From UHGV virus genome UHGV-0016284: 55,548 nt of DNA. One strand, given 5' to 3'. The position numbers were made by a program, and so were the translations under genes. Shown here in pieces: positions 24,229 to 54,019 of this stretch (position 1 is its first letter; each line of letters opens with the position of its first letter). The notes below the pieces were generated by a model. The model saw only the letters and a program-made list of their open reading frames with translations, was not told the origin of the DNA and did no database searches. The DNA comes from a virus.

Positions 24229-24453
24229 ATGATCGAAGAAAAGGAAATTGATAAAGAAATGCCTGATGGTCGTGATGAGCTTATTTGTTTTGATGGCGGC
24301 CTGTATGAGTTCGATACGTCGGCTGGGTGGACGGATAAGTGGCCGCAATTAACAAAACAGGAGCTTTTAAGCAGAAACAGTTTTGGTAATGACAAAGAAC
24401 GGCTGGCTAATAACAAATGGCTTGATAAGTTAATTGCGGAGGGTGGCAAATGA
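24229..24453 (+). CDS. hypothetical protein (74 aa)
   Basis: GAGG ribosome-binding site before ATG 24229. Confidence 0.4.
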   Translation: MIEEKEIDKEMPDGRDELICFDGGLYEFDTSAGWTDKWPQLTKQELLSRNSFGNDKERLANNKWLDKLIAEGGK

Positions 24454-24563
24454 GCTTTGCAAAAATTGCCGCATTGCTTGCGGCTTTATCTATCGCTGTG
24501 CTGTATCTCAGCGTATCTCTTTATATCACGGTAGCGATTATTAAACTCATTACTAACATGTGA
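24450..24563 (+). CDS. hydrophobic minipeptide (37 aa)
   Basis: MSFAKIAALLAALSIAVLYLSVSLYITVAIIKLITNM; ATGA overlap with the upstream stop. Confidence 0.35.
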   Translation: MSFAKIAALLAALSIAVLYLSVSLYITVAIIKLITNM

Positions 24564-24571
24564 GGCCAATC

Positions 24572-24691
24572 ATGAAAGTCGGTAAGGACATTGTGACTGT
24601 CGCGTTTTGCATTATTTGCTTCCTGTTTGTGGTTGTTTTTTGTGGCGCATTTGCCGCGCTGGTTAGCCTTATTTTCAGGGGGTTACTGTGA
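24572..24691 (+). CDS. hydrophobic minipeptide (39 aa)
   Basis: MKVGKDIVTVAFCIICFLFVVVFCGAFAALVSLIFRGLL; GAGG ribosome-binding site upstream; stop overlaps the next start. Confidence 0.35.
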   Translation: MKVGKDIVTVAFCIICFLFVVVFCGAFAALVSLIFRGLL

Positions 24692-35264: not shown

Positions 35265-35963
35265 ATGGAAGAAATGGTTTTATTGTCATCAATATGGCAT
35301 AAATTCGGAAGCGAGAAAGGTTATTCCCCAGCTTGCTGGTTGAATAGCAAAAGCGGTGAGGAATATCAAGATAAGTGTGAGTTGCGACGGATAGGGAAAA
35401 AAGGGAGCGCTGCTCGCGGGTATTTTGCTCCGCAATATGTGGCAAATGAGTATGGCGGCTGGTTGGCCAGGTCATTGACTAAAGTATCGTCACTTGTCTG
35501 CCTTACAGATATATGGAGGAATCACGATGCGCCCGAGTCGCGTCGTCCTTATCTTTGGTTGCAACGTCGTGGGTGGATATACAAAGACAGCACAAAAGTT
35601 ATAGGCAGTAAGACTTACGCAACAAAAGATGTGGCCGCTGCTTATGATGCGTGGTTGTGTGGTATTGAGAATAATAGACCTTACGGCAATGAGGCGTTTG
35701 CCAGAATTGAGCACGGCGCTTTATGCATGTATGAACAATTGGTTGGTGTTAAGCTAATTAGACAATATAAGGTATTGGAATACCGGATAGATGGTTATGA
35801 TCCGGTAAATAATATCGCCGTAGAAATTGACGAAGGGCATCATAAAAGCCAGGAGGCATCTGACGCTATACGTCAGCGCCGTATTGAAGAGGAGTTGGGA
35901 TGTTCATTTTTTCGGTGTCGCATATTTGACACGGAAACTGCGCAATATTGCAATGAAAAATAA
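35265..35963 (+). CDS. cargo protein with C-terminal Vsr/DUF559-like (PD-(D/E)xK-type) nuclease domain
   Basis: C-terminus YRIDGYDPVNNIAVEIDEGHH.......DAIRQRRIEEELGCSFFR matches the DUF559/Vsr-like pattern (..VDF..P...L.IE.DG..H......D..R...L...G..V.RF) by eye. N-terminal ~140 aa unassigned. Confidence 0.5.
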   Translation: MEEMVLLSSIWHKFGSEKGYSPACWLNSKSGEEYQDKCELRRIGKKGSAARGYFAPQYVANEYGGWLARSLTKVSSLVCLTDIWRNHDAPESRRPYLWLQRRGWIYKDSTKVIGSKTYATKDVAAAYDAWLCGIENNRPYGNEAFARIEHGALCMYEQLVGVKLIRQYKVLEYRIDGYDPVNNIAVEIDEGHHKSQEASDAIRQRRIEEELGCSFFRCRIFDTETAQYCNEK

Positions 35964-36003
35964 AAAAGATTAGCATATTTACAACAATGCGAAACTGTAA
36001 CTA

Positions 36004-36030
36004 CCCGGCCCCGCGCCGGGTTTTTGCTTT
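36004..36030 (+). terminator. rho-independent terminator immediately upstream of the holin gene (tR'-like position)
   Basis: Hairpin cccggc-cccgc-gccggg followed by ttttt; GGAGGA ribosome-binding site and holin ATG follow. Confidence 0.65.
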
Positions 36031-36045
36031 GTTGGAGGAAAATCT

Positions 36046-36246
36046 ATGTTCGACAGAATACGGGAGGCGTGTGCGTATGTGACTGGGGCCGTAACTGCTT
36101 TTTTCGGCGCGATAACCATCAATGACGTCGCTGTTTTCGTTGGTATCTTATCAACCGTAGGCACATTTGCCGTTAATTATTACTTCAAATCACAGGAGAA
36201 CAAGCGGGCGCAAGAGGAACACGACGCGCGAATGGGGAATAAGTAA
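36046..36246 (+). CDS. holin (small two-TM type, pinholin-like)
   Basis: 66 aa, two hydrophobic segments, charged C-terminus (KSQENKRAQEEHDARMGNK); directly precedes the endolysin. Confidence 0.6.
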   Translation: MFDRIREACAYVTGAVTAFFGAITINDVAVFVGILSTVGTFAVNYYFKSQENKRAQEEHDARMGNK

Positions 36247-36738
36247 ATGATTAGCCAATCGCTGAAAAACAAGATTGTTGCGGCGGCGGCTGGTGGGGCG
36301 ATCGCTATTGCGGGGGCGATGATAAAAGATCTTGAAGGCGTTGAGTATAAGCCATACAGAGATGTCATCGGTGTTTACACGATATGTTATGGACACGTCG
36401 GAAAAGACATCATGCTTGGTAAGACTTACACGCAATCAGAATGCGATGCTTTGTTAAATAAAGATCTACACAAGACCGCAAAAGCGATTGACCCATATAT
36501 CAAAGTCGAAGTATCAGATTTTACCCGCGCTGCACTTTATTCCTTCGCCTATAACGTAGGCGCAACCAACTTCAAAACATCAACCTTATTAAAGCTACTC
36601 AATGACGGCAAGAAATCGGAAGCGTGCGCACAGCTTAAGCGCTGGGTATACGCTGGCGGTAAGAAGTGGCAAGGCCTGGTTAACCGCCGCGATGTTGAAT
36701 ATGCCGTTTGCGAATGGGGTGAGAAATGGACAAGGTGA
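36247..36738 (+). CDS. SAR endolysin (lysozyme, GH24 / T4-lysozyme-like)
   Basis: Catalytic E-x8-D-x5-T triad in [22 protein letters not shown]; N-terminal weakly hydrophobic Gly/Ala-rich signal-anchor-release segment ([17 protein letters not shown]). Confidence 0.8.
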
Positions 36739-37196
36739 AGACGTTAATCATCGCCGTTGTTGTTTGCATTATTGCCAGCCTTACCGCCGTAACGTGTTAT
36801 TACCAGGGTGAGGCAGCAAGGTTACAGGAAGAAGTCACGGTAACGAAAGGCGCACTGAAAACGGCAAGTAACACTATTCAGCAGATGAAGGAGCGAAACG
36901 CCGAACTGTCAAAACTTGATAAGAGGTATCACGATGAGATTAAAGCTATCAGATCTGACATTGCTGATCTGCGCACTGGTATTGACAATGGCACTATCAA
37001 GCTGCGCGTCAACGCCGTGCCAATGCGAACGGACAGTAATACCGGAGCCGCCAGCCGCATTGATGGAGCCTCCTGTAGACTCACTCCCGACGCTGAATCG
37101 GCTTATCTATCCCTCAGAGAACAACTAAAAACGAAAGACGCTCAGATCACTGGGTTACAGGACTACATAAAAACGCAGTGCTTACGCAAAGAATAA
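36726..37196 (+). CDS. Rz-like inner-membrane spanin
   Basis: N-terminal TM helix ([16 protein letters not shown]), coiled-coil periplasmic domain; overlaps the endolysin stop. Confidence 0.7.
36934..37128 (+). CDS. Rz1-like outer-membrane lipoprotein spanin, embedded in the +1 frame of Rz
   Basis: [26 protein letters not shown]: lipobox LSSC; Pro-rich mature peptide; fully nested inside the Rz gene. Confidence 0.6.
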   Translation: MRLKLSDLTLLICALVLTMALSSCASTPCQCERTVIPEPPAALMEPPVDSLPTLNRLIYPSENN

Positions 37197-37533
37197 CAGC
37201 GCGTGGACGTGTCGCCGTTTCCGCCAGCCAGCCATAACCGGGCCAATCCTTCCCGCGAGCGACGGCGGAAATTCAAAAACACGTAATACCGGATCAACAG
37301 TCCCATTAACAGGTCCGGCGCTACCTGGGTAGAAGAAAGCGCCATTTACTCACCTGCCATGCGTAGGACGAGCGCCCGGATCTGTTTATCAGAGATGTTA
37401 AGCAGGTCCAGTTTTATAAAATTCTGCAAACGGTACTCATGCAGTGCCGTTTTTAGTGTTTTATAGCTGTTTTCACTCCCTGCGGTGTCCAGTTTTGCGG
37501 GGGTTATACTTTTCAGGATAGAGGAATATTCTG

Positions 37534-38118
37534 ATGGCTAAGGCTAAAGGCATCAAGTTGCCTCAATTCAAAGTTCCGCTCTTTGAGCATACAATAGTTT
37601 TCTTCTGCCCGACCCGCGACATGTTTTATGAATTTTGCGAAAGGGCTGGAATACCAATTGAACCTGATTTCGAACTGGCAGGAGGGTTGACGCTTACTTG
37701 CACTGGTGAGAAAGGCGGTAACTTCTACGTGATCGCAGTATTCGATAATGAGCTTGGTACGCTGGTCCATGAAGCGGCGCATACGACATTCCACGTTCTA
37801 AGCGATGTAGGTGTCGTGGCAACCACTGATCCAACTCATCCGGCGAACGAGACTTATGCTTACATGGTAGGCCGCATCTTTGACGCATTCTTCCCAATCC
37901 TGGCTGAGTCAAACGAAGCACAGATTGCAGCTATGCAGGCCGCTGAAGTCGTAGAGAAGGCATTAGATCAGGCGGAAAAGGCGACCGATGCAGCAGAACA
38001 GGCAGTGGAACAGGTAGAGGAGCCGAAAGAAGAGAAAAAGCCAGTTAAGAAAGGCAAACGTAAGCCTAAAGCAAAAGAAGCGCTTGTACCGCGTGTTATG
38101 AGCTTTAAACGGGGGTGA
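37534..38118 (+). CDS. hypothetical protein with HExxH motif and Lys/Glu/Ala-rich C-terminal tail
   Basis: LVHEAAHTTFHVL (HEAAH...H) in a ~110-aa N-terminal domain; C-terminal low-complexity basic tail (EEPKEEKKPVKKGKRKPKAKE). Confidence 0.5.
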   Translation: MAKAKGIKLPQFKVPLFEHTIVFFCPTRDMFYEFCERAGIPIEPDFELAGGLTLTCTGEKGGNFYVIAVFDNELGTLVHEAAHTTFHVLSDVGVVATTDPTHPANETYAYMVGRIFDAFFPILAESNEAQIAAMQAAEVVEKALDQAEKATDAAEQAVEQVEEPKEEKKPVKKGKRKPKAKEALVPRVMSFKRG

Positions 38119-38120
38119 TT

Positions 38121-38189
38121 ATGGTTACTTTCCTGTTAGGTTTATTTATCGGAATGGCTGCGGCTGTAATATTGCTGGTTGGTGAATAA
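38121..38189 (+). CDS. minipeptide 1 of tandem array (22 aa, single TM helix)
   Basis: MVTFLLGLFIGMAAAVILLVGE; GGGGGTGA ribosome-binding site; starts 2 nt after the upstream stop. Confidence 0.4.
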   Translation: MVTFLLGLFIGMAAAVILLVGE

Positions 38190-38193
38190 TGTT

Positions 38194-38310
38194 ATGGATG
38201 ATTATATCATTGCCGGATTGATCGGCATTTCTGTATATCTGGTGGGTTTTATTGCAGTTGCACTAATAAACGCAAAGATCAAGCACTGGGGGGGGGGAGG
38301 GGCAAGATGA
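38194..38310 (+). CDS. minipeptide 2 of tandem array (38 aa); contains a G10 homopolymer
   Basis: MDDYIIAGLIGISVYLVGFIAVALINAKIKHWGGGGAR; GGTGA ribosome-binding site; the G10 tract at 38288-38297 encodes WGGGG. Confidence 0.4.
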   Translation: MDDYIIAGLIGISVYLVGFIAVALINAKIKHWGGGGAR

Positions 38311-38381
38311 TTGACCCGCTCATTATCCTTTCTGCCTGCGTCGCTGTATGGCTGGCTATCATGATATTCATTGAAAGCTAA
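38307..38381 (+). CDS. minipeptide 3 of tandem array (24 aa)
   Basis: MIDPLIILSACVAVWLAIMIFIES; ATGA overlap with peptide 2; GGAGGGG ribosome-binding site. Confidence 0.4.
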   Translation: MIDPLIILSACVAVWLAIMIFIES

Positions 38382-38392
38382 AGGTTCTCATC

Positions 38393-38467
38393 ATGAATAT
38401 TTACGATCTAATCTGGTGGTCGTTGGTCGCCGTCATTATCTATTTCTGGTGGAAGAATGTTGTATAG
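38393..38467 (+). CDS. minipeptide 4 of tandem array (24 aa)
   Basis: MNIYDLIWWSLVAVIIYFWWKNVV. Confidence 0.35.
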   Translation: MNIYDLIWWSLVAVIIYFWWKNVV

Positions 38468-38475
38468 GTGAAAGC

Positions 38476-38556
38476 ATGAACGCATACGAAATGCTATTGC
38501 TGGTGGCTGTTATTACAGTTATTGCCGTTGATTTCTATAGAGGGTTAAAAAGATGA
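38476..38556 (+). CDS. minipeptide 5 of tandem array (26 aa)
   Basis: MNAYEMLLLVAVITVIAVDFYRGLKR; AGGTGA ribosome-binding site. The track ORF 38371..38556 is a probable over-extension from a non-ATG start. Confidence 0.4.
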   Translation: MNAYEMLLLVAVITVIAVDFYRGLKR

Positions 38557-38639
38557 GAGAAGCAGACTTCTTTTGCATAATTATAGTGATCGTCATCGTT
38601 GCGGTGCTTTTAAGCGTTAACGGAATCGCAGGGGGTTGA
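38553..38639 (+). CDS. minipeptide 6 of tandem array (28 aa)
   Basis: MREADFFCIIIVIVIVAVLLSVNGIAGG; ATGA overlap with peptide 5. Confidence 0.4.
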   Translation: MREADFFCIIIVIVIVAVLLSVNGIAGG

Positions 38640-38641
38640 AA

Positions 38642-38710
38642 ATGAAATGGCTTGATTTCTTTTTCCTGATTGTCGCGATTGTTCTAACCATGACCGCGCT
38701 GACTCAATAG
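38642..38710 (+). CDS. minipeptide 7 of tandem array (22 aa)
   Basis: MKWLDFFFLIVAIVLTMTALTQ; GGGGG ribosome-binding site; starts 2 nt after the peptide 6 stop. Confidence 0.4.
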   Translation: MKWLDFFFLIVAIVLTMTALTQ

Positions 38711-38778
38711 GTTGTGGCTTGGACGCGCATTTTATGCGCTTCCTAAATTCAGCAAGTCAAATAAAGTGGACGGCAACA

Positions 38779-38862
38779 ATGAAAGAGCTATTCGACTGGT
38801 TGGAAGTATTAACATACTGCGCAAGTTTTGTGGCTTGCGTATATATCATCAACAAATATTAA
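38779..38862 (+). CDS. minipeptide 8 (27 aa)
   Basis: MKELFDWLEVLTYCASFVACVYIINKY; same architecture as peptides 4-7 (M-x-x-acidic, then hydrophobic helix); weak ribosome-binding site. Confidence 0.3.
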   Translation: MKELFDWLEVLTYCASFVACVYIINKY

Positions 38863-39017
38863 TGGGTGACGCGATGAATAATGAAGAACTAAAAATTGCT
38901 GATGAAGTCAGAAAGGCACTTGACGCGGCAGAAAACAATAAAACTATCTATCTTTCCGAGCGGGAAGTAGAAAAGATGATGGATGAATTTAAATTAAAAT
39001 TTGAAAAAGATAATTGA
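38862..39017 (+). CDS. small acidic helical protein (51 aa)
   Basis: MGDAMNNEELKIADEVRKALDAAENNKTIYLSEREVEKMMDEFKLKFEKDN; start overlaps the peptide 8 stop; lies just before terminase. Confidence 0.35.
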   Translation: MGDAMNNEELKIADEVRKALDAAENNKTIYLSEREVEKMMDEFKLKFEKDN

Positions 39018-39027
39018 GAGGTGAATT

Positions 39028-39513
39028 ATGGCCCGCACTAAAAAGGCAAAGGCTGACGATAAAAAGCCAGCGGCTAAAAAGGTGGGCCGTCCGCATGGTT
39101 ATACCGAAGAAAAGGCATTAGAGATCTGTGAGCTGGTGGCGGACGGTCAGAGTATTAACAAGATTTCGAAGATGCCTGATATGCCTGCGCGTTCAACAAT
39201 CCTTAAATGGTTCAGAGACGTGCCGGAATTCTCGGACATGTACATGCGCGCGAAGGAAATCGGCTTCGAGGTATTAGCTGATGAGATCATCGATATAGCC
39301 GATGCGGCGGAGAATATCGATAAAGACGAATGCCGCCGCCATCAACTGATGATTGAAACCCGTAAATGGCTATTGGCAAAACTGCAACCGCGTAAGTATG
39401 GTGAACGCGTTACACAGGAGATCGTCGGCAACAGGGAAGAAGCGCCCGTACAGGTAGAAGTCACAAAAGAAGAGATCGCCCGCATCGTTCAGGAAGTAGA
39501 AGATGAGGTGTGA
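39028..39513 (+). CDS. terminase small subunit
   Basis: GRPHGYTEEKALEICELVADGQSINKISKMPDMPARSTILKWFRDVPEFSDMYMRAKEIGFEVLADEIIDIADAA matches the common phage small-terminase HTH family; directly precedes the large subunit. Confidence 0.8.
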   Translation: MARTKKAKADDKKPAAKKVGRPHGYTEEKALEICELVADGQSINKISKMPDMPARSTILKWFRDVPEFSDMYMRAKEIGFEVLADEIIDIADAAENIDKDECRRHQLMIETRKWLLAKLQPRKYGERVTQEIVGNREEAPVQVEVTKEEIARIVQEVEDEV

Positions 39514-39515
39514 TT

Positions 39516-40994
39516 ATGTTGACAATCAAAGAACGAGTTATTCAGTCCAAATGTGAAAACGATGGCCTGTTTTTCAATCGCTACTTTTACAAGCAAGCGA
39601 ACGGAACGAAGATGTTAATCTCAGGCCATCATTTAGCTATCCGCGACGCACTGCAACACGTTGTCAATGGTGAGATAACCCGACTCATCATTAACATTCC
39701 CCCAGGGTACGGCAAAACCATGATCGCTACTATCAACATGATGGCGCGGTCCCTCGCAATAAATCCCCGCACAAGATTCCTTCACGTTTCCTATTCCAAC
39801 AACCTGGCGCTACTCAACTCCTCGACCGTAAGAAACATGATTTGTACGCCTGAATATCAGGCAATGTGGCCCATGAGGATCCGCAACGATGCAAACTCAA
39901 AATCGATGTGGTGGACTGAATACGGTGGCGGCGTGTATGCAACGTCATCGCTGGGCCAGGTAACTGGGTTCCGTGCTGGGTATATGGAACCGGGATTCAA
40001 CGGTGCGTTAATCATCGACGACCCATTAAAACCCGCTGACGCTTACTCAGACGTGGTGAGAAAGCAGGTTAACACTAACTATAACGACACGCTTGCTTCA
40101 CGTCTGGCAGTGCAAACGACGCCTGTTATCGTCATTATGCAGCGCATCCACTACGATGATTTGTCCGGCTACCTGCTACGCGGTGGGAGCGGTGAAAAAT
40201 GGTATCACCTTAACCTGCCAGTGAAGATCGACAACAGCGTTGACTATCGGGATTTGTACCCTGAAAACGAGTTCGCCATCCCTATTGCTCACAACCTGCC
40301 AGATGGCTGGCTGTGGCCTAAAAAGCACAATGACGCCCATGAAGCTGGATTGAAGGCACACAGACGGTCATTTGAGGCCCAGTACATGCAGCGCCCGCGT
40401 AAATTCGACGAAGAGGGTGCATTGTGGACTGAAGCGATGATAACCGCAGCGCACCGGATGCAGATAACGCAGGACAAGATCCGCACGGTGATAGCCATTG
40501 ACCCAGCGACAACGTCATCTGATGAGTCTGACGAAACGGGGATCGTGGCGTGTTCCGCATATGGTGGCGGCAAGAATGCTCAGTATTCTGTTGATGGTGA
40601 CTATTCAGGCCGCATGTCGCCTAACGACTGGGCGCAAGCATCAATGAACGCCTACAACATCCATGAAGCTGACGCGATGGTTATCGAAACCAACCAGGGT
40701 GGGGAAATGGCAGAGGCCACACTACGCAATGCAGGATTTAAGGGCCGCATTGTTAAGGTGCACGCAAGTAAAGGTAAATTCGCCCGCGCCGAACCAATAT
40801 CAGCACTATATGCCCAGGGCAGAGTAGCCCACACTGGCAGCCTGTACACGCTGGAAAATCAAATGATGGAATACGTGCCAGCTACCGCTAAAAAATCCCC
40901 TGACCGTATGGATGCGATGGTATGGGGCATCACTGAATTAAGCCAACCACAGGCAATGGGCCTCATGTTACCCAAGCGCCTACGCGGATTTTAA
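39516..40994 (+). CDS. terminase large subunit
   Basis: Walker A-like PPGYGKT; ATPase plus nuclease-size architecture (493 aa); GAGGTG ribosome-binding site before ATG 39516. Confidence 0.85.
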   Translation: MLTIKERVIQSKCENDGLFFNRYFYKQANGTKMLISGHHLAIRDALQHVVNGEITRLIINIPPGYGKTMIATINMMARSLAINPRTRFLHVSYSNNLALLNSSTVRNMICTPEYQAMWPMRIRNDANSKSMWWTEYGGGVYATSSLGQVTGFRAGYMEPGFNGALIIDDPLKPADAYSDVVRKQVNTNYNDTLASRLAVQTTPVIVIMQRIHYDDLSGYLLRGGSGEKWYHLNLPVKIDNSVDYRDLYPENEFAIPIAHNLPDGWLWPKKHNDAHEAGLKAHRRSFEAQYMQRPRKFDEEGALWTEAMITAAHRMQITQDKIRTVIAIDPATTSSDESDETGIVACSAYGGGKNAQYSVDGDYSGRMSPNDWAQASMNAYNIHEADAMVIETNQGGEMAEATLRNAGFKGRIVKVHASKGKFARAEPISALYAQGRVAHTGSLYTLENQMMEYVPATAKKSPDRMDAMVWGITELSQPQAMGLMLPKRLRGF

Positions 40995-53690: not shown

Positions 53691-53846
53691 TTAGTTGACC
53701 ACTTTCAGGAAGAAATCACGGTATTCATCTTCTTTTGCATTCATCATGAATTGACCGTATTTGAATGCGTCATCAAAGCCTTTAACTATCGCCACTTCCA
53801 CCTGTTCGAATGCGTTGTTCAGCATCACAACCACATAGCGTTCCAT
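53691..53846 (-). CDS. small protein (51 aa), antisense cassette gene 1
   Basis: MERYVVVMLNNAFEQVEVAIVKGFDDAFKYGQFMMNAKEDEYRDFFLKVVN; GGGGGGAGGGG ribosome-binding site before ATG 53846. Confidence 0.4.
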   Translation of the reverse strand: MERYVVVMLNNAFEQVEVAIVKGFDDAFKYGQFMMNAKEDEYRDFFLKVVN

Positions 53847-54019
53847 ATTGCCCCTCCCCCCTTGTCGGTACTGCTTTTTCTTCTTGCTTACTATATACAT
53901 CTTGTCACGCCTTATGTGAAGCCATTTTGTAAACTGGTTATAATTCTTGTGATGAATTTCTCATTTTTCGCGTAGAAGCGCGTAAAGATGTATGCAATAT
54001 GTAACTTATAGGGGGAATC

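Follow-up and report, generated by a model that had tools for sequence, protein, structure and literature searches.

What lies between the lysis genes and the terminase genes of UHGV-0016284, a virus genome analysed here as one stretch of 55,548 nucleotides (the window)? A reading made from the letters alone (the original prediction) had placed there, at 38121–38862 on the plus strand, a tandem array of eight translationally coupled genes, each for a minipeptide with a single membrane helix. A listing of all open reading frames (ORFs) of at least 20 codons over 37500–39500 recovered all eight exactly where they had been placed, back to back, 22–38 codons long and each encoding one hydrophobic helix (pep1–pep8; Table 1). 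As set out below, these mini-ORFs are very probably real protein-coding genes under purifying selection, and they form part of a locus whose gene content differs from phage to phage.

Evidence that the mini-ORFs are genes

The window is a member of the mEp021/mEpimmI group of temperate, Nus-dependent, non-lambdoid Escherichia coli phages, and its DNA is 86–94% identical to that of mEp044, mEp010, mEp554, mEp021, mEp515, mEp013 and MagusPhagus, as well as to about 40 E. coli prophages. We compared it with 17 annotated relatives (L001–L017) and 47 IMG/VR contigs (L018–L064), giving 65 genomes, and delimited in each the interval from a gene for a 194-residue protein to the terminase gene terS (the slot; 318–1154 bp). 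The 65 genomes comprise 56 distinct sequences in this slot. Scanning IMG/VR with a terS profile returned mostly contigs already in the sample.

To gauge chance, we counted non-overlapping ATG-initiated ORFs of at least 20 amino acids with a hydrophobic window, using 1000 dinucleotide shuffles as the null. The array held 8 such ORFs on the plus strand and 0 on the minus strand, versus a shuffle mean of 0.73 ± 0.72 and a maximum of 3, and the same rule nowhere gave more than 4 in the rest of the window. T made up 51% of codon position 2 in the window's array and position 3 was flat; because the enrichment is confined to position 2, it is a coding signature and not general T-richness. Substitutions among relatives were equally frame-specific. 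The ratio of non-synonymous to synonymous change (pN/pS, from Nei–Gojobori counts), pooled over 18 genomes, was 0.25 in the proposed frame versus 1.13 and 1.13 in the other two; computed per family on all 65 genomes, it was 0.08–0.38 in 18/18 families and ~1 off-frame. The lowest values belonged to f04 (0.08) and to f03 and f09 (0.12), with terS (0.17) and the 194-residue protein gene (0.15) as yardsticks. In relatives, then, the region is neither non-coding nor broken in frame, either of which the original prediction had named as refuting it, and substitution is biased towards synonymous change.

Copies were intact in 588 of roughly 600 cases (~99%), with about 8 disrupted. True disruptions were few: one lineage has lost the f08 start, L037 retains a remnant, f06 of L060 has ATA in place of its ATG, and f03 of L066 is frameshifted. 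Together with the gain and loss of whole ORFs, these intact frames and the frame-specific constraint strongly support the proposal of tandem, coupled single-helix minipeptide genes.

Spacing and initiation signals in the array are those of closely packed genes. Across genomes, 109 junctions were overlaps of 4 nt and 47 were overlaps of 8 nt, the remainder being mostly gaps of 2–17 nt. Shine–Dalgarno (SD) strength, taken as the pairing energy with the anti-SD sequence upstream of starts, averaged −5.25 kcal/mol at called starts versus −2.1 at other ATGs in the same intervals, a comparison slightly biased because the start-calling rule preferred SD-bearing starts. In the window the pairing energies from pep1 to pep8 were −9.9, −4.7, −11.8, −3.4, −3.7, −6.3, −10.1 and −5.5 kcal/mol. 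SD strength is thus uneven: five of the eight starts have clear sequences and three have weak ones, where seven recognisable SDs had been claimed. The strong site GGAGGGG precedes pep3. Three ATGA stop/start overlaps had likewise been proposed; two were found, at pep2/pep3 and pep5/pep6, and the third coupled junction is instead a TAATG at the end of pep8. The start of pep7 lies 2 nt beyond the pep6 stop.

Variation of the array among relatives

The slot was tiled by the same kind of mini-ORF in 65/65 genomes, with 3–13 in each (median 9), drawn from about 23 peptide families. The 65 genomes displayed 44 architectures, which differ by the presence or absence of whole ORFs along a collinear order. 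The first slot, occupied by f10 (pep1) in the window, is taken in other genomes by f15, f17, f20, f24 or f25; there follow f05, f18/f22, f02, f06, f21, f09, f01, f12, f03, f07, f08, f13 and f14, with f04 or f19 at the end. The window's own architecture, f10-f05-f02-f06-f01-f12-f03-f04, is common to mEp044 and L027. The pep8 slot was filled by f04 or its allele f19 in 65/65 genomes, making it the only universal member, always last and the most constrained. Over the 65 loci, with phylogeny not corrected for, f04 and f19 were mutually exclusive, as alleles of one slot. Families f07 and f08 were found together in 31 genomes, f07 alone in 3 and f08 alone in 0, and the paralogues f12 and f13 never occurred together (0/24/15/17) despite their different positions; both sets of counts ignore phylogeny.

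Paralogy was scored by Smith–Waterman alignment against composition-preserving shuffles and expressed as z. Values were 10.9 for f04–f19, 10.3 for f12–f13, 9.9 for f10–f20, 9.4 for f01–f18, 8.9 for f06–f26, 6.4 for f03–f12 and 6.0 for f03–f13. Peptides 4–8 had been thought to look paralogous as a set; this held for pep6 and pep7 (z 6.4) and, more weakly, for pep4 and pep5 (z 3.8), and failed for pep8, which is related to the allelic f19 only. Pep6 and pep7 also share DNA repeats that keep the codon register, as do pep2 and pep5. In L066 (4558–4802) an in-frame f05::f01 chimera (MDDYIIAGLIGISVFLVSFVIAVDVYREIKK) is joined exactly at the segment common to both paralogues, which, with the in-register repeats, indicates that recombination between paralogues occurs. 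At the same L066 locus the frameshifted f03 reads into f07.

The array was absent from the distant terS relatives L110 and L111 and from P22-like phages. The same families of peptides are nevertheless present in L065 and L066, whose homologues of the 194-residue protein gene are the most divergent (60% and 71% identity). In some relatives, genes for free-standing HNH endonucleases interrupt the stretch from the lysis cassette to terS at varied points (L006, 1603–2040; L065, 2752–3273; L066, 2194–2718 and 3413–3985), and in mEp013 an HNH gene fills the first array slots. The locus behaves as a cassette array: accessory paralogues come and go, recombine and now and then fuse, while their order remains constant.

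Peptide design and homology

Across all eight window peptides the maximum Kyte–Doolittle (KD) hydropathy over 15 residues was 1.9–3.8, and the uncharged cores spanned 15–30 residues. Each product is shorter than 50 residues with one hydrophobic segment, as for single-span proteins; pep8, with a 15-residue core and a KD value of 2.18, is borderline as a membrane span. The shape originally proposed, a single-pass membrane peptide with an acidic N terminus, extends to the families at large: N-terminal tails were net negative in 17/23 families and never positive, typically reading M-x-x-x-[D/E] before the helix, and C-terminal tails were at or above zero charge, neutral or basic, in 21/23. Because their N-tails are acidic and their C-tails neutral or basic, the positive-inside rule predicts that the peptides sit N-out/C-in in the inner membrane, as do small phage proteins that depend on YidC and the proton-motive force (pmf). 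We regard membrane insertion itself as likely.

Searches for relatives of the peptides returned little. Scans against Pfam, PHROGs and NCBIfam gave nothing above cut-off, the PHROG matches being sub-threshold. Searching 50,697 phage records by tblastn with a 47-residue and a 38-residue family member gave matches in the mEp021 group only, and a full HMMER scan with pep2 against 1.84 billion representative proteins found its own family only. None of the eight window peptides, seven of which have fewer than 30 residues, was present in a collection of 15 billion proteins; 32-residue and 47-residue families were there, without names.

Existing annotation is of little help. PHANOTATE/Pharokka annotation in GenBank calls some of the mini-ORFs, often in another frame or extent, and RefSeq/PGAP calls almost none; mismatched public coding-sequence calls include 2368–2475, 2518–2616 and 2697–2852 in L001 (mEp044) and 1868–2071 in L007. 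Public annotation of the slot is unreliable. Neither transmembrane nor small ORFs are mentioned in the mEpimmI genome paper, and general literature searches turned up no description of such an array; no published ribosome profiling or proteomics of these loci came to light either.

A private G tract at the pep2–pep3 junction

A run of ten G residues (G10) at 38288–38297 on the plus strand lies within the 3′ end of pep2, immediately before the SD of pep3, and is the window's only run of at least seven G or C. The original prediction had located it and calculated that one further G would fuse pep2 in frame to pep3; both coordinates and arithmetic proved correct. We simulated tract lengths from G7 to G13. 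With G9 or G12, pep2 ends in ...EGQDD; G10 gives the observed ...GGGGAR; and G8 or G11 joins pep2 to pep3 as a two-helix protein of 61–62 residues. Relatives carry CTGGGTGGAGGGG at this site; those of the same pep2 subtype read ...CACTGGGTGGAGGGGCA[AG]... and end in ...HWVEGQ[DH]D, with an 8-nt overlap on pep3. Versus the latter, the window is longer by 4 bases, ends in ...HWGGGGAR and meets pep3 in its ATGA overlap, so that owing to the tract the C-terminal tail of pep2 is frameshifted relative to its family.

The tract had been put forward as a slipped-strand phase switch, which would give pep2 three alternative forms, one with a short tail, one with the ancestral tail and a two-helix fusion to pep3. 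Runs of ten G are intrinsically prone to slippage, this one lies inside a coding region, and each frame yields a viable product (...EGQDD at G9, ...GGGGAR at G10 and a 62-residue fusion at G11). A fusion of this type also exists in nature: the metagenomic relative L022 (3661–3843) encodes an in-frame f05–f02 protein of 60 residues with two helices, caused by a 1-nt deletion in the GGAGGGG SD run, in the GGGG adjoining the G10 site. A contingency locus would, however, be expected to be conserved with variable length, and none of the 64 relatives had a run of at least seven G in the slot, nor did any IMG/VR match have five or more G at the site. Moreover, a tract one base off the ancestral frame, with G9 restoring the family C terminus, is also the pattern that a sequencing error in a homopolymer would leave. 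A programmed switch is accordingly improbable. Being confined to the window and displaced by one base from the ancestral frame, G10 most probably reflects a recent, private +1 slippage event or a homopolymer sequencing error. We read the pep2/pep3 junction as mutationally fragile, with all three frames tolerated.

The start context of pep3 had been noted to recur elsewhere in the window, and it does: the 14-mer GGGGGGAGGGGCAA, followed by N-ATG, is found at 53848–53861 on the minus strand, ahead of the ATG at 53846. That ATG opens a 51-residue soluble ORF (53691–53846, minus strand; MERYVVVMLNNAFEQ...). Of the 14 bases, 10 (GGAGGGGCAA) belong to the ancestral G-rich SD region, which relatives have too, and the private G run supplies the remaining 4. 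There is no functional link to be seen between the two sites.

Genomic setting

The features around the array are collected in Table 1.

Table 1. Features of the window from the holin gene to the terminase genes.
Feature	Coordinates	Strand	Product or content	Remarks
Class II holin	36046–36246			upstream lysis cassette
Endolysin	36247–36738			upstream lysis cassette
Rz with embedded Rz1	36726–37196			upstream lysis cassette
Terminator-like hairpin	37428–37452	+	T-rich tail	between Rz/Rz1 spanin genes and 194-aa gene
194-aa gene	37534–38118	+	mEp021 gp49 homologue	phrog_1365
pep1	38121–38189	+	family f10, 22 aa, MVTFLLGLFIGMAAAVILLVGE	accessory, 27/65 genomes
pep2	38194–38310	+	family f05, 38 aa, MDDYIIAGLIGISVYLVGFIAVALINAKIKHWGGGGAR	56/65 genomes
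pep3	38307–38381	+	family f02, 24 aa, MIDPLIILSACVAVWLAIMIFIES	near-core, 62/65 genomes
pep4	38393–38467	+	family f06, 24 aa, MNIYDLIWWSLVAVIIYFWWKNVV	Trp-rich; accessory, 44/65 genomes
pep5	38476–38556	+	family f01, 26 aa, MNAYEMLLLVAVITVIAVDFYRGLKR	near-core, 63/65 genomes; basic C-tail YRGLKR
pep6	38553–38639	+	family f12, 28 aa, MREADFFCIIIVIVIVAVLLSVNGIAGG	accessory, 26/65 genomes; ATGA overlap with pep5
pep7	38642–38710	+	family f03, 22 aa, MKWLDFFFLIVAIVLTMTALTQ	near-core, 61/65 genomes; pep6 paralogue
Non-coding spacer	38711–38778	+	68 nt, perfect hairpin GCGCATTTTATGCGC	pep7 to pep8
pep8	38779–38862	+	family f04, 27 aa, MKELFDWLEVLTYCASFVACVYIINKY	last in array
47-aa ORF	38874–39017	+	acidic, soluble	accessory; between pep8 and terS
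terS	39028–39513	+	Sf6_terminase, PF20901	E=2e-37
terL	39510–40994	+		after terS

The array does lie between the lysis cassette and the terminase genes, as the original prediction had it, without abutting either directly: a hairpin and the 194-residue protein gene intervene upstream, and the 47-residue ORF precedes terS. The site matching the hairpin is annotated as terminator TERM_6 in mEp021. A consensus scan found no sigma-70-like promoter between this terminator and the 194-residue protein gene. Within the array it yielded a single promoter-like match, weak, at 38553, and a pair of hairpins weakly resembling terminators, at 38211 and 38414; such totals are unremarkable versus shuffled sequence. 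No minus-strand promoter-like site appeared in 35500–39700, by a consensus scan that a weak promoter could escape, and an Rfam scan at E ≤ 1 gave no match.

The gene for the 194-residue protein stops 2 nt upstream of the pep1 ATG. Its residues H79, E80, H83 and E106 (HExxH...E) are invariant, also in P22-like homologues, and the same motif is carried by Orf129 of phage L, gp49 of ST64T and hkcC of HK620; one homologue bears the source label PolyVal metallopeptidase. The product is probably a small zincin-like metallopeptidase, judged by this motif; the model predicted for its structure had low confidence (pLDDT 63), and a fold search was no more than weakly suggestive of zincins. The mEpimmI versions of the protein carry an added acidic helix and basic tail (KKGKRKPKAKEALVPRVMSFKRG). 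In phages L and ST64T the slot between this homologue and terS holds dec, a decoration gene, and no array. This marks the slot as a position for accessory genes and shows that the HExxH gene need not be accompanied by the array.

Two further junctions vary among genomes. The hairpin spacer between pep7 and pep8 is conserved in a subset of genomes with the same direct f03–f04 junction type; elsewhere f03 joins f04 by 9–10 nt, or f07, f08, f13 and f14 occupy the spacer position. At the array's end, the pep8 stop lies 10–11 nt before the terS ATG in 56/65 genomes (TGA-GAGGTGAAAT-ATG). In the other 9/65, including the window, the gap is 165–166 nt, consistent with insertion of the 47-residue ORF, which a strict sequence pattern detected in 6 of these 9 long-gap genomes. 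Because the 3′ end of this ORF recreates the pep8–terS junction (TGAGAGGTGAA-ATG), insertion by recombination at the junction sequence is suggested.

The early region of the window holds a second, smaller set of such ORFs: two SD-led single-helix mini-ORFs of 37 and 39 residues (24450–24563 and 24572–24691, plus strand) closely follow an SSB-like gene, and the start of the first overlaps the end of a 79-residue ORF as ATGA.

A proposed function and its rivals

What might a string of such peptides do? The explanation that we consider best overall, and on balance probable, is a coupled late array of inner-membrane modulators that act by helix binding. The locus would be a polycistronic array of mini-genes, each product, at 22–38 residues, being little beyond one transmembrane helix. 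As a terminator lies upstream and no notable promoter or terminator lies inside, the array may form the 5′ portion of the late message for packaging and morphogenesis, transcribed by polymerases that read through the upstream terminator; late co-expression seems fairly likely from this arrangement. Translation would be coupled, given that each start falls between 8 nt inside and 17 nt beyond the previous stop, behind its own SD. The peptides would then insert N-out/C-in in the inner membrane, as does the YidC/pmf-dependent Pf3 coat protein, and bind larger inner-membrane proteins, whether the phage's holin and spanin machinery or host proteins. Strong family-specific conservation argues for specific helix–helix contacts and not mere anchoring. 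Such binding could tune membrane events at the end of infection, such as lysis timing or a block to secondary DNA entry, although a role in lysis or exclusion is itself doubtful.

Several points weigh against this explanation. Nothing ties the peptides specifically to the holin, and between them and the lysis cassette stand the terminator and a further gene. The Pfam, PHROGs, NCBIfam, phage-record and protein searches yielded no homologue with a known function. Peptides of 20–24 residues may be unstable. Most array members are individually dispensable, since the smallest array, in L037, holds 3 genes, and some copies are pseudogenes. The SD comparison carries the slight bias described above. 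All relatives come from one shallow E. coli phage lineage, so conservation was tested only over roughly 10–40% synonymous divergence.

The main rival with some support holds that the ORFs are a translation relay, kept for ribosome cover of the spacer up to terS, with peptide sequences that are incidental; translation would shield the late mRNA from Rho or RNases, or serial re-initiation would set ribosome flux into terS. The tight coupling geometry across the array fits this, as do the freedom of ORF number to vary from 3 to 13 and the end of the last ORF 10–11 nt before the terS ATG in most genomes, with the terS SD directly after its stop. Yet such a function predicts no amino-acid constraint, and constraint was found in every family tested (pN/pS 0.08–0.38); it leaves the design of hydrophobic helix and acidic N-tail without explanation, and in P22-like phages one ordinary gene, dec, fills the same slot. 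We therefore think it improbable. Still less credence attaches to the idea that these are spurious ORFs in a T-rich non-coding spacer, possibly one with packaging or regulatory signals. The slot's GC content is indeed low (0.41–0.43 versus about 0.50), it is T-rich, and RefSeq/PGAP annotates almost nothing in it; the T excess, however, falls at codon position 2 only, starts, stops and SDs are conserved in the 65 genomes, indels add or remove whole ORFs, and the synonymous excess confined to the proposed frame effectively refutes this idea. In phages with an Sf6-type terS the packaging site is normally inside terS. A pac or cos signal in the array is unlikely, the window's terS being of the Sf6 type and the signal frame-specific.

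The original prediction had also raised membrane effectors resembling type I toxins. Such toxins (in the style of Ldr, Ibs, Hok or TisB) would kill or arrest the cell under the control of antisense RNA. Size and hydrophobicity are alike, and E. coli carries tandem copies of ldr and ibs (PMC12648545). Against this stand the lack of a promoter-like site on the minus strand in the interval scanned, of an Rfam match and of any Pfam or NCBIfam toxin family above cut-off. The genes are polycistronic, with no independent transcription unit or structured leader; they lie 2–17 nt apart or overlap, with exposed SDs, which leaves no space for each to have its own promoter or a folded 5′ untranslated region (UTR). 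Toxins of this kind are very improbable here. Two further candidates fared no better. A bacteriocin or secreted peptide is unlikely, there being no leader or processing site in peptides that are nearly all transmembrane helix; and membership among holins or antiholins found no family match, in a phage with a canonical holin at 36046–36246 and an array with no endolysin adjacency.

Returning to membrane modulation, a bolder version would make the locus a combinatorial toolkit of transmembrane-helix micropeptides and a new kind of phage hypervariable region. Each peptide would fit a single target in the inner membrane, for example the holin, a channel for DNA entry or a host defence effector anchored there; lineages would shuffle the peptides as cassettes of whole genes, and in this way change when lysis occurs, escape exclusion or impose it; and the universal pep8/f04 would be functionally tied to the expression or localization of terminase. 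Taken jointly with these details, we consider this proposal unlikely as it stands.

Relation to known systems

Holins and antiholins such as lambda S105/S107, T4 RI and P1 Lyd act late, and interactions between their transmembrane helices set the timing of lysis. The peptides resemble them as small phage membrane proteins near a lysis cassette. They differ in being much shorter and in matching no holin family, in belonging to a phage that already has a class II holin, an endolysin and Rz/Rz1, and in being separated from these by a terminator and the 194-residue protein gene. The Pf3 coat protein serves as a model for insertion, being small, dependent on YidC and the pmf, and N-out/C-in, the topology predicted here. 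Pf3 and M13 coats are, however, virion structural proteins of filamentous phages, whereas the window phage is tailed. The P22-like phages L and ST64T offer the closest positional parallel (orf118-orf129-dec-gene 3): the same place, 3′ of an HExxH homologue with 42–44% identity and 5′ of terS, is there filled by one ordinary soluble gene for the Dec decoration protein, and here by a mini-gene array.

Ldr, Ibs, Hok, TisB and ShoB likewise are hydrophobic peptides of 18–50 residues, with tandem paralogues, some of them on prophages. A type I toxin gene has a promoter to itself, its 5′ UTR is structured, and it is paired with an antisense or divergent small RNA; the array, in contrast, is polycistronic, its genes have their own SDs at spacings of −8 to +17 nt, and no antisense promoter or RNA family was found. 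In function the peptides look most like regulators of the AcrZ, KdpF or MgrB type, by analogy of form. Together with MgtS and CydX, these are bacterial small membrane proteins that regulate larger membrane proteins (PMC12648545). Like them, the array products have fewer than 50 residues, a single transmembrane helix and little else, and are missed by annotation; helix–helix binding to a larger membrane protein is the shared feature that we propose. Unlike them, to which they have no sequence relationship, the array comprises 3–13 coupled paralogues and not single genes, is phage-borne, would belong to a late operon and is hypervariable in gene content.

Small membrane proteins are already known as a class, recognized yet badly under-annotated; what is unusual is their hypervariable tandem organization, specific to one coliphage group, with up to 13 of them adjacent in one phage operon. 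These mini-genes are under selection comparable to that on terminase, and yet all the products shorter than 30 residues that were tested are missing from the collection of 15 billion proteins and from RefSeq annotation. Standard size cut-offs thus hide a conserved and evolving part of a common group of human-gut coliphages. With 44 gene-content variants among 65 otherwise similar phages infecting E. coli K-12, the locus amounts to a natural experiment in which the function of phage micropeptides is directly testable by deletion, swapping and expression.

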